Shown in pieces: positions 42,834 to 43,383 of a DNA stretch of 64,000 nt. Under the pieces are notes generated by a model, which worked only from the letters and a program-made list of their open reading frames with translations, did no database searches and was not told the origin of the DNA. The first letter of the stretch is position 1, and each line of letters starts with the position of its first letter. This stretch comes from Gammaproteobacteria bacterium. GTDB lineage: Bacteria; Pseudomonadota; Gammaproteobacteria; JABABF01. The position numbers and the translations under genes are program-made. The DNA is taken from assembly GCA_965237805.1 (NCBI GenBank), contig OZ250153.1, forward strand, positions 64,001-128,000, given 5' to 3'.

Positions 42834-42907
42834 GGCTGGATGGCAGAGTGGTCATGTAGCGGACTGCAACTCCGTGTACGCCGGTTCGATTCCGGCTCCA
42901 GCCTCCA
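42834..42907 (+). tRNA. tRNA-Cys(GCA)
   Basis: Acceptor GGCTGGA/TCCAGCC, anticodon loop CTGCAAC, T-loop GGTTCGATTCC, discriminator T, encoded CCA. Confidence 0.95.
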
Positions 42908-42926
42908 TGTCCAGCGGAAGCAGAGC

Positions 42927-43260
42927 TGGTGCGGGGAGCGGGACTTGAACCCGCATGGGGCGATCGCCCCGGCAGATTTTCATCGCCGCCACGGCTTTCG
43001 CCGCCGGGTTGTGTTCCGTTTGGGCGCTGGACTTTGCCTTCGCCGTATCCCGCTAAGCGGGACTTAGGCGGGTGCCGTCAAGTCTCTACACCTTGCCCCG
43101 TATCGCGGCCTTGGCACGGCGTTGCCATCAGCCAGCGGTGGGAGCTACCTGTCGCTGTTGTTAAGGGTTCGCCGTTTTTGACACCTTCTACACCGCGGAT
43201 TTCTCCGCGGGCACTCAATTGCTTTAAGTCTGCTGCGTCTACCGATTCCGCCATCCCCGC
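42927..43260 (-). tRNA. tRNA-Leu(UAA), intron-split (5' exon 43260-43226; 3' exon 42980-42927)
   Basis: Joined exons give acceptor GCGGGGA/TCCCCGC, anticodon arm GCAGA-CTT|AAAA-TCTGC, long variable arm GGGGC-GATC-GCCCC, T-loop GGTTCAAGTCC and ACCA end; 89 nt spliced. Confidence 0.93.
42981..43225 (-). ncRNA. Group I self-splicing intron (IC3-type), 245 nt, no ORF
   Basis: 5' exon ends in U and intron ends in G. P1 ACUU|AA with UUGAGU (U.G at splice site); P2 CCGCGGA-GAAA-UCCGCGG; P3 GGUGUC/GGCACC; P4 ACGGCG/CGCCGU; P7 GAGACU/AGUCC; P8 receptor CCUAAG...UACGG; P9 CGGC-GAAA-GCCG. Confidence 0.93.
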
Positions 43261-43268
43261 TCGTGACC

Positions 43269-43274
43269 ATTGTA
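43269..43274 (-). promoter_or_regulatory. Putative -10 element for tRNA-Leu
   Basis: Minus-strand TACAAT 8 nt upstream of the tRNA 5' end. Confidence 0.5.
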
Positions 43275-43383
43275 GCCCAGCCCCTAGACAATGCCATCGA
43301 TTGACGCTAGCATGAGCGCTTGAGGTTGGTAGCGTCTTCGCTGCCATTGAGAATACGGCTCGAGAGACAACAAGGGGGTGCCC

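Follow-up and report, generated by a model that had tools for sequence, protein, structure and literature searches.

How does a genome read the leucine codon UUA when ordinary gene finders return no tRNA for it? This question is raised by a 64,000-nucleotide stretch of DNA (here called the window) from a small genome (G000; 1.73 Mb, 61.6% GC). ARAGORN finds 41 tRNAs in this genome, and the Rfam tRNA model finds the same 41 together with two degenerate copies above the cut-off and one sub-threshold tRNA-like element; no other tRNA-Leu(UAA) is present among the 41 ARAGORN or the 43 Rfam tRNA matches. UUA is in regular use: in a set of 927 non-overlapping open reading frames of at least 250 amino acids, which cover 77% of the genome, it occurs 1533 times (3.5 per 1000 codons) and in 617 of the frames, including the uvrC and pgsA genes adjacent to the locus described here. 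On the window, default ARAGORN and the Rfam tRNA model call only a tRNA-Ser and a tRNA-Cys and miss a split tRNA-Leu gene, as a first-pass annotation had foreseen when it suggested that such an intron might escape standard pipelines. Without an intron-aware tRNA search, the genome seems unable to read UUA. The sequence data discussed below indicate that the answer is very probably a single tRNA-Leu(UAA) gene interrupted by a functional, IC3-type group I intron, of which the catalytic activity is deduced from structure.

The tRNA-Leu(UAA) gene lies on the minus strand (43260-42927) and is split after the first base of its anticodon by an insert of 245 nt. On this strand the 5' half of the tRNA ends in ...GCAGACUU and is followed by 245 nt ending in G, after which the 3' half begins with AAAAUCUGC... 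and runs to an encoded CCA. The 5' exon (43226..43260, 35 nt, ending in ...GACUU) carries the acceptor strand, the D arm, and the 5' half of the anticodon stem-loop, with U34 as its last base. The intron occupies 42981..43225, from its first A to the terminal omega-G at 42981. The 3' exon (42927..42980, 54 nt, starting with AAAAUC) supplies A35 and A36, the 3' side of the anticodon stem, the long variable arm, the T arm, the acceptor strand, and the CCA end. When introns are allowed, ARAGORN (option -i) reports a tRNA-Leu(taa) in which an intron of 245 nt separates CUU from AAAA in the anticodon loop, at the junction of nucleotides 34 and 35, and the exons joined by script give a canonical 89-nt class II tRNA-Leu(taa). 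The exon and insert coordinates of the first-pass annotation are therefore exact, the insertion is inside the UAA anticodon as it had claimed, and the spliced 89-mer that it proposed to submit to ARAGORN folds as a normal tRNA-Leu(taa). A weak sigma-70-like promoter match (43269..43297, minus strand; ATGGCA, 17 nt, TACAAT; 9 of 12 positions matching in a consensus scan) ends 9 nt ahead of the 5' end of the tRNA. On the other side, tRNA-Cys(GCA) (42834..42907, plus strand) is convergent with the tRNA-Leu gene, and the 3' ends of the two genes are 19 nt apart.

To what class of RNA does the insert belong? Homologues were collected by two routes. When the split gene was searched by BLAST in 41 related genomes, this one included, its intron part was matched in four of them (G000, G001, G016, and G006), for which ARAGORN -i reports introns of 245, 243, 216, and 252 nt, respectively, at the same site. 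The copy in G001, which belongs to the same genus, shares 85% DNA identity with the one studied here, and six other relatives, among them the same-family genome G002, have a tRNA-Leu(taa) with no intron. A degenerate pattern of the P7 / J7-3 / P7' core, applied to a species-representative genome collection, gave at least 120 loci from many phyla. Among the 120 matches listed, ARAGORN -i identified 48 tRNA-Leu(taa) introns; the other matches listed fall in genes for Met, Arg, Ser, Phe, Thr, His, or other tRNAs or receive no call. Exon ends GACUU and AAAAUC around an intron terminating in G recur in 50 of the 52 tRNA-Leu(taa) intron calls (the 48 among the matches listed plus the 4 found by BLAST), and the two exceptions (L039 and L084) are due to mis-set boundaries. 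We aligned 47 of these 50 introns, omitting the three longest (L030, L042, and L045; 309-332 nt), and wrote on the alignment a P1-P9 model of 54 pairs in which P7 forms a pseudoknot.

All 54 pairs of this model are standard in the copy studied here. Across the 47 introns, 96.0% of the cells pair, compared to 29.1-40.6% when the 3' partners are slid by 1-3 columns, and 34 of the 54 pairs have changed on both sides; none of 500 shuffles reached any of the five measures. For P3, P4, P5, P6, P6a, and P8, the paired fraction is 98.6-100%, with 15 of 24 pairs changed on both sides. Even between the two species of the genus (G000 and G001), 10 of the 54 pairs differ; 3 of these have changed on both sides, and no pair is lost. 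A covariance model (R2) built from 45 introns of other genera, leaving out G000 and G001, matches 42975-43235 on the minus strand with 196.3 bits (E about 2.9e-69, by a rough calibration). The match covers all 248 positions of the model, contains no pair flagged as non-standard, and is the only one in the window, and a search of the whole genome with covariance model R1 gave no second copy of the intron. The group I identity put forward in the first-pass annotation is thus borne out, and by sequence the insert is a group I intron of the IC3 type.

One could still suppose that the insert resembles a group I intron by chance, or is some other structured RNA, and that the tRNA halves are unrelated fragments. 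The lack of an Rfam group I match (see below) and an unremarkable folding energy would speak for this: the single-sequence minimum-free-energy fold has a z score of -1.68, 9 of 200 shuffles are as good, and the pseudoknotted core is not recovered. However, a fold of this kind is uninformative for this ribozyme because it is pseudoknotted. The exons join into a canonical tRNA-Leu, BLAST detects homologous introns in this tRNA gene in other genera, and the joined tRNA, the covariation, and the leave-out covariance model together rule such an origin out; we give it practically no weight.

The individual helices, all on the minus strand, are consistent with an intact ribozyme. P1 (43213..43229) pairs the exon nucleotides ACUU and the intron nucleotides AA (43229-43224) with the guide UUGAGU (43218-43213); its six pairs are all standard in this copy, and the U.G wobble at the 5' splice site (U 43226 / G 43216) is found in all 47 aligned introns. 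The P2 hairpin (43190..43212) is closed by a GAAA tetraloop, L2 (43203-43200), and 8 of its 9 pairs have changed on both sides across homologues. P3 consists of GGUGUC (43180..43185) paired with GGCACC (43071..43076, read 43076-43071), with 99.6% of the cells paired and 4 of the 6 pairs changed on both sides. In the domain at 43116..43175, P4 (43175-43170 with 43121-43116) encloses P5 and its extension (43166-43125); P4 and P5 pair in 100% of the cells of the alignment, and in this copy the domain has A-U and C-G swaps relative to the consensus U-A and G-C. P6 and the P6a hairpin (43090..43115) pair in 100% and 98.6% of the cells, respectively, and all three P6a pairs have changed on both sides. 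P7, the putative guanosine-binding helix, pseudoknotted with P3, is made of GAGACU with a bulged A (43081..43086) and AGUCC (43029..43033, read 43033-43029). It is identical in all 47 introns, and this invariance provides no covariation evidence because the pattern used for collecting the homologues fixed four of its five pairs, only the G.C pair 43086/43029 being free.

P8 (43041..43070) has a base of four pairs, three of them changed on both sides, and carries what reads from the sequence as an 11-nt-type tetraloop-receptor motif (CCUAAG at 43068-43063 and UACGG at 43047-43043). The 3' part of the canonical 11-nt receptor is UAUGG, from which the UACGG found here is one base off. The P9 domain (42984..43026) comprises an outer helix (43026-43023 with 42987-42984), a variable hairpin, and a hairpin closed by a second GAAA tetraloop, L9 (42999-42996); all four pairs of the outer helix and four of the five pairs of the GAAA hairpin have changed on both sides. 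P5 carries CCUUAAC...UGAUGG, a variant receptor motif with an extra U compared to the canonical form. From these motifs, peripheral contacts of L2 with P8 and of L9 with P5 may be predicted for this intron. The omega-G at 42981 lies directly before the 3' splice site. Two open reading frames (128 and 239 amino acids) overlap the intron and gave no match in a Pfam scan. The intron contains no maturase and is also too short to encode a homing endonuclease. The features singled out in the first-pass annotation (the U.G wobble in P1, the P7 strands, two GAAA loops, and the receptor-type motif in P8) are therefore all there, and its description of the intron as structurally intact and ORF-less stands: no core helix is missing, and the two GAAA loops, the receptor in P8, the U.G wobble, and the omega-G are all in place.

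Why, then, does the general model for group I introns not find it? The Rfam 15 model RF00028 (Intron_gpI) gave no match at its gathering threshold on the 64-kb window, none at E<=10 on stretches of 801 nt and 286 nt, and none on the whole genome. The first-pass annotation had suggested this search as a check and had taken the lack of a significant covariance-model hit as a sign against the intron; by that rule the miss would wrongly have been counted against it, and a purpose-built model was needed. When RF00028 was run on 20 clear tRNA-Leu intron loci, 16 matched at E<=1, 7 reached the 50-bit cut-off, and 13 stayed below it; no match at all was obtained for G000, G001, G126, and L033. Because only 16 of 20 clear homologues match, and 7 at the cut-off, the missing match looks like low sensitivity of the model and not like a failure of group I membership. 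As the Rfam model is blind to this intron clade, tRNA genes are probably under-called in many genomes of proteobacteria and acidobacteria. The value of the present case lies mainly in annotation, and nothing changes in what is known about group I introns.

Since UUA is widely used and the genome holds no other decoder for it, the intron must be removed. In the splicing route that we propose, the precursor would be transcribed from the minus strand, and the end of the 5' exon, ACUU, would pair with the intron guide to form P1, in which the U.G wobble would mark the splice site. P3-P9 would fold into the catalytic core, braced by docking of the L2 GAAA loop on the P8 receptor and of the L9 GAAA loop on P5. 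A free guanosine bound in P7 would attack after U34; the terminal G (42981) would then take the place of this guanosine in P7, and the freed 3'-OH of U34 would attack after G 42981. U34 would thereby be joined to A35, giving the mature UAA anticodon. A search for sequencing runs that contain this DNA gave two runs of a single study, both stored as contigs, and no RNA run.

Many plastid trnL introns are said to need a host protein for splicing, and the intron described here might likewise be a genuine group I intron that has lost the ability to splice unaided. Autocatalysis is deduced from sequence, the P5 receptor is a variant form, and most homologues have a shorter P5 extension, all of which would be in keeping with such a dependence. 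On the other hand, the core helices and all the other elements listed above, the omega-G included, are intact, no pair has been lost between the two species of the genus, and the intron carries no maturase or other open reading frame. We therefore consider dependence on a host protein unlikely and favor autocatalytic splicing.

It is still less likely, and in our view highly improbable, that the tRNA gene is dead, with its intron decaying and UUA being decoded in some other way. The decoding of leucine in this genome is not fully accounted for, as a tRNA-Leu(UAG) goes undetected although CUA is common, and this leaves some room for the idea. However, there is no alternative tRNA with a UAA anticodon while two thirds of the long open reading frames contain UUA, and the structure has been kept by compensatory change both within the genus and across the 47 homologues. 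A functional split gene remains the preferred reading. Because this one gene is then the only gate to UUA in so many open reading frames, guanosine- and Mg2+-dependent splicing could conceivably make the translation of genes with UUA codons responsive to stress or to the level of GTP. The model for such gating is the rare-codon control by bldA in Streptomyces; for the genome studied here we regard the idea as a long shot.

The set of leucine tRNAs in this genome (GAG, CAG, CAA, and UAA) shows a gap of its own. CUA, with 3233 occurrences (7.35 per 1000 codons), is found in 839 of the 927 long open reading frames and is unreadable for these tRNAs by standard wobble; a tRNA-Leu(UAG) was absent from the genome according to ARAGORN, the Rfam tRNA model, nhmmer, and a regular expression for the D arm and anticodon. 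In G016, tRNA-Leu(UAG) follows a Pro-Arg-His cluster of tRNA genes; the same cluster in G000 ends with nothing after tRNA-His, where the slot would be expected (G000:C1:20071). The tRNA-Leu(UAG) pattern was found in G016 and G056 and not in the same-family genomes G001, G002, and G003. Either the gene is located in unassembled DNA or CUA decoding is unusual in the family. The completeness of the assembly is 97.4%, and the ends of the contig do not overlap. As for the additional Rfam tRNA matches, the sub-threshold element (G000:C1:1712244-1712351, plus strand, outside the window; 25.7 bits) shows well-formed acceptor and T arms, while its anticodon arm is lengthened by an AT-rich insert of about 35 nt that forms an inverted repeat. 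ARAGORN -i reads this element as tRNA-Asp(atc) containing an intron of 33 nt. The two degenerate copies (G000:C1:1212083-1212152 and 1370677-1370736; 35.5 and 33.1 bits), which default ARAGORN does not call, directly adjoin intact genes for tRNA-Arg(CCG) and tRNA-Thr(UGU).

In which kind of host does the split gene reside, and how did it get there? The gene order around it is 2OG-oxygenase, uvrC, pgsA, tRNA-Cys (plus strand), tRNA-Leu (minus strand), and cytochrome P450. In Escherichia coli the order is uvrC, pgsA, tRNA-Gly, tRNA-Cys, tRNA-Leu, and the split gene is the positional counterpart of the E. coli tRNA-Leu gene that follows pgsA, tRNA-Gly, and tRNA-Cys. Compared to E. coli, tRNA-Gly is gone from the cluster and tRNA-Leu is inverted; tRNA-Gly(GCC) is now found at G000:C1:63141-63216, beside tRNA-Glu. 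The 16S rRNA is 84% identical to that of Steroidobacter flavus and 78% identical to that of the alphaproteobacterium Rhodovulum steppense. Together, the synteny and the 16S identity fit a deep-branching gammaproteobacterial host, in support of the host assignment made in the first-pass annotation.

Synteny with the same-family genome G002 (L175) breaks exactly between tRNA-Cys and tRNA-Leu (window 42834-43260), and the genes that lie downstream in G002 are found 450-630 kb away in G000. A replacement tRNA gene borne by an island is unsupported, as there is no integrase or mobile-element gene nearby and no tRNA-Leu fragment elsewhere in the genome: among the 15 open reading frames scanned between 39.4 and 53.2 kb, none encodes a mobile-element function, 12 match Pfam families of ordinary cellular enzymes, and 3 (including the 2 that overlap the intron) have no match. 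The GC content shows a small dip over 43-46 kb (0.56-0.58, compared to 0.62 for the genome).

How rare is such an intron? Model R1 was run at E<=0.001 on a sample of 151 genomes, in which each family of the same GTDB class is represented once and G000 is included, and it matched in 30. Of the best loci of these 30 genomes, 13 are called by ARAGORN -i as an intron-containing tRNA-Leu(taa), 2 as another leucine tRNA (cag or caa), 4 as Gln, and 1 each as Arg, Met, His, and Lys; 7 receive no call. An intron at the same site of tRNA-Leu(UAA) is thus carried by 13 of the 151 sampled families of the class, and the word rare, used in the first-pass annotation for gammaproteobacteria, overstated the case. 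In the class sample, the same intron family also occurs in Leu(CAG), Leu(CAA), Arg(UCU), Met(CAU), His(GUG), and Lys(CUU) genes and, in four genomes, in Gln(CUG) (L146, L147, L150, and L152-L158 for all of these). In a class relative, the tRNA-Leu(taa) gene (L151, G137:C175:73209-76415; positions 974-1754 of the locus) is interrupted at this anticodon position by 693 nt, in which the intron model matches twice, at separate places (79 and 87 bits); the insert could represent either one intron enlarged by a long insertion or two introns, nested or in tandem. In all 13 intron-bearing genomes of the class sample tRNA-Cys lies in the same locus of about 3 kb as tRNA-Leu, and in 8 of them tRNA-Gly does so too. 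Ten of the 48 tRNA-Leu loci among the pattern-scan matches listed come from Gammaproteobacteria, including Steroidobacter, Halioglobus, and Carnimonas. Within the family of the window, the intron is confined to its genus: the same-family genomes G002 and G003 gave no match, and neither did G004 of the same order.

A maximum-likelihood tree of 75 introns over 243 model-aligned columns, in which the bootstrap was not fully settled, joins G000 and G001 (100/99), then G126 (100/95), and places them as sister to the tRNA-Leu introns of Burkholderia and Paraburkholderia (91/82). This group stands apart from the cluster that holds most of the gammaproteobacterial copies, and mapping the host labels on the tree takes 27 changes where the minimum is 11. 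By these results, the intron is common in the class although its distribution is sporadic, and the relationships among the introns do not mirror the taxonomy of their hosts. Such a mismatch fits repeated transfer and loss, perhaps of the entire tRNA gene, for which the data are short. Exon identity between G000 and other genomes is 72% for the intron-less gene in G002, 75% for G126, and 80-81% for G016 and G056. Given that tRNA-Leu is inverted relative to tRNA-Cys, that the exons are only 72% identical to those of G002, and that the intron groups with those of G126 and the Burkholderiales, the genus may conceivably have obtained its split tRNA gene when the entire locus was replaced.

The nearest relatives of the intron on the tree, those of G126 and of Burkholderia and Paraburkholderia (L041, L042, and L056), share with it a C-G at the fifth pair of P4 and GGCA in J8/7; their hosts belong to other families or orders, and their exons are 70-75% identical to those of this gene. 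A tRNA-Leu(UAA) intron has reportedly been found before in a deep-subsurface gammaproteobacterium, in work by Vepritskiy et al. said to have appeared in J Bacteriol in 2002. A point of comparison for the fold is the IC3 intron of Azoarcus, which, unlike the intron described here, sits in tRNA Ile-CAU at another position of the anticodon loop. We take the core strands of the two introns to be very similar in sequence, and ours is presumably about 40 nt longer, mostly in P5 and P9. The L2 tetraloop of the Azoarcus intron docks on the P8 receptor (PMC2709566), and contacts of L2 with P8 and of L9 with P5 are discussed in PMC11571812; the layout predicted here fits these. The Azoarcus intron has in common with ours a short P1 (with a guide of 3-6 nt), a GAAA loop on P2, the P8 receptor, a compact P3-P9 core, and L9.

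For the host gene, a close parallel is given by two Beggiatoaceae, BOGUAY and Ca. Thiomargarita nelsonii, in which, according to PMC4853749, tRNA-Leu-TAA is interrupted. There, as here, a gammaproteobacterial tRNA-Leu-TAA had been missed by annotation, with a putative group I intron interrupting it; those hosts differ in being giant sulfur bacteria rich in mobile elements. A further match is with the map of 5292 intron-split tRNA genes by Williams (2020), in which Leu.3Ug is listed as a classical type. With this type the present intron shares the host gene, the site (CUU/intron/AAAA), the U at position -1, the omega-G, the IC3 subgroup, the lack of an open reading frame, and a length in the range of about 200-330 nt. 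The same study noted that no bacterial sequence was present in the Rfam seed and that its yield increased by 20.2% through the use of a model for bacterial tRNA introns. The copy studied here differs in that it sits in a small-genome, uncultured gammaproteobacterial lineage and scores nothing with the Rfam model used in the first phase of that work. The intron belongs to a family that is already known and widespread and is an unexceptional example of it, a fairly common element that is overlooked by standard gene finders.
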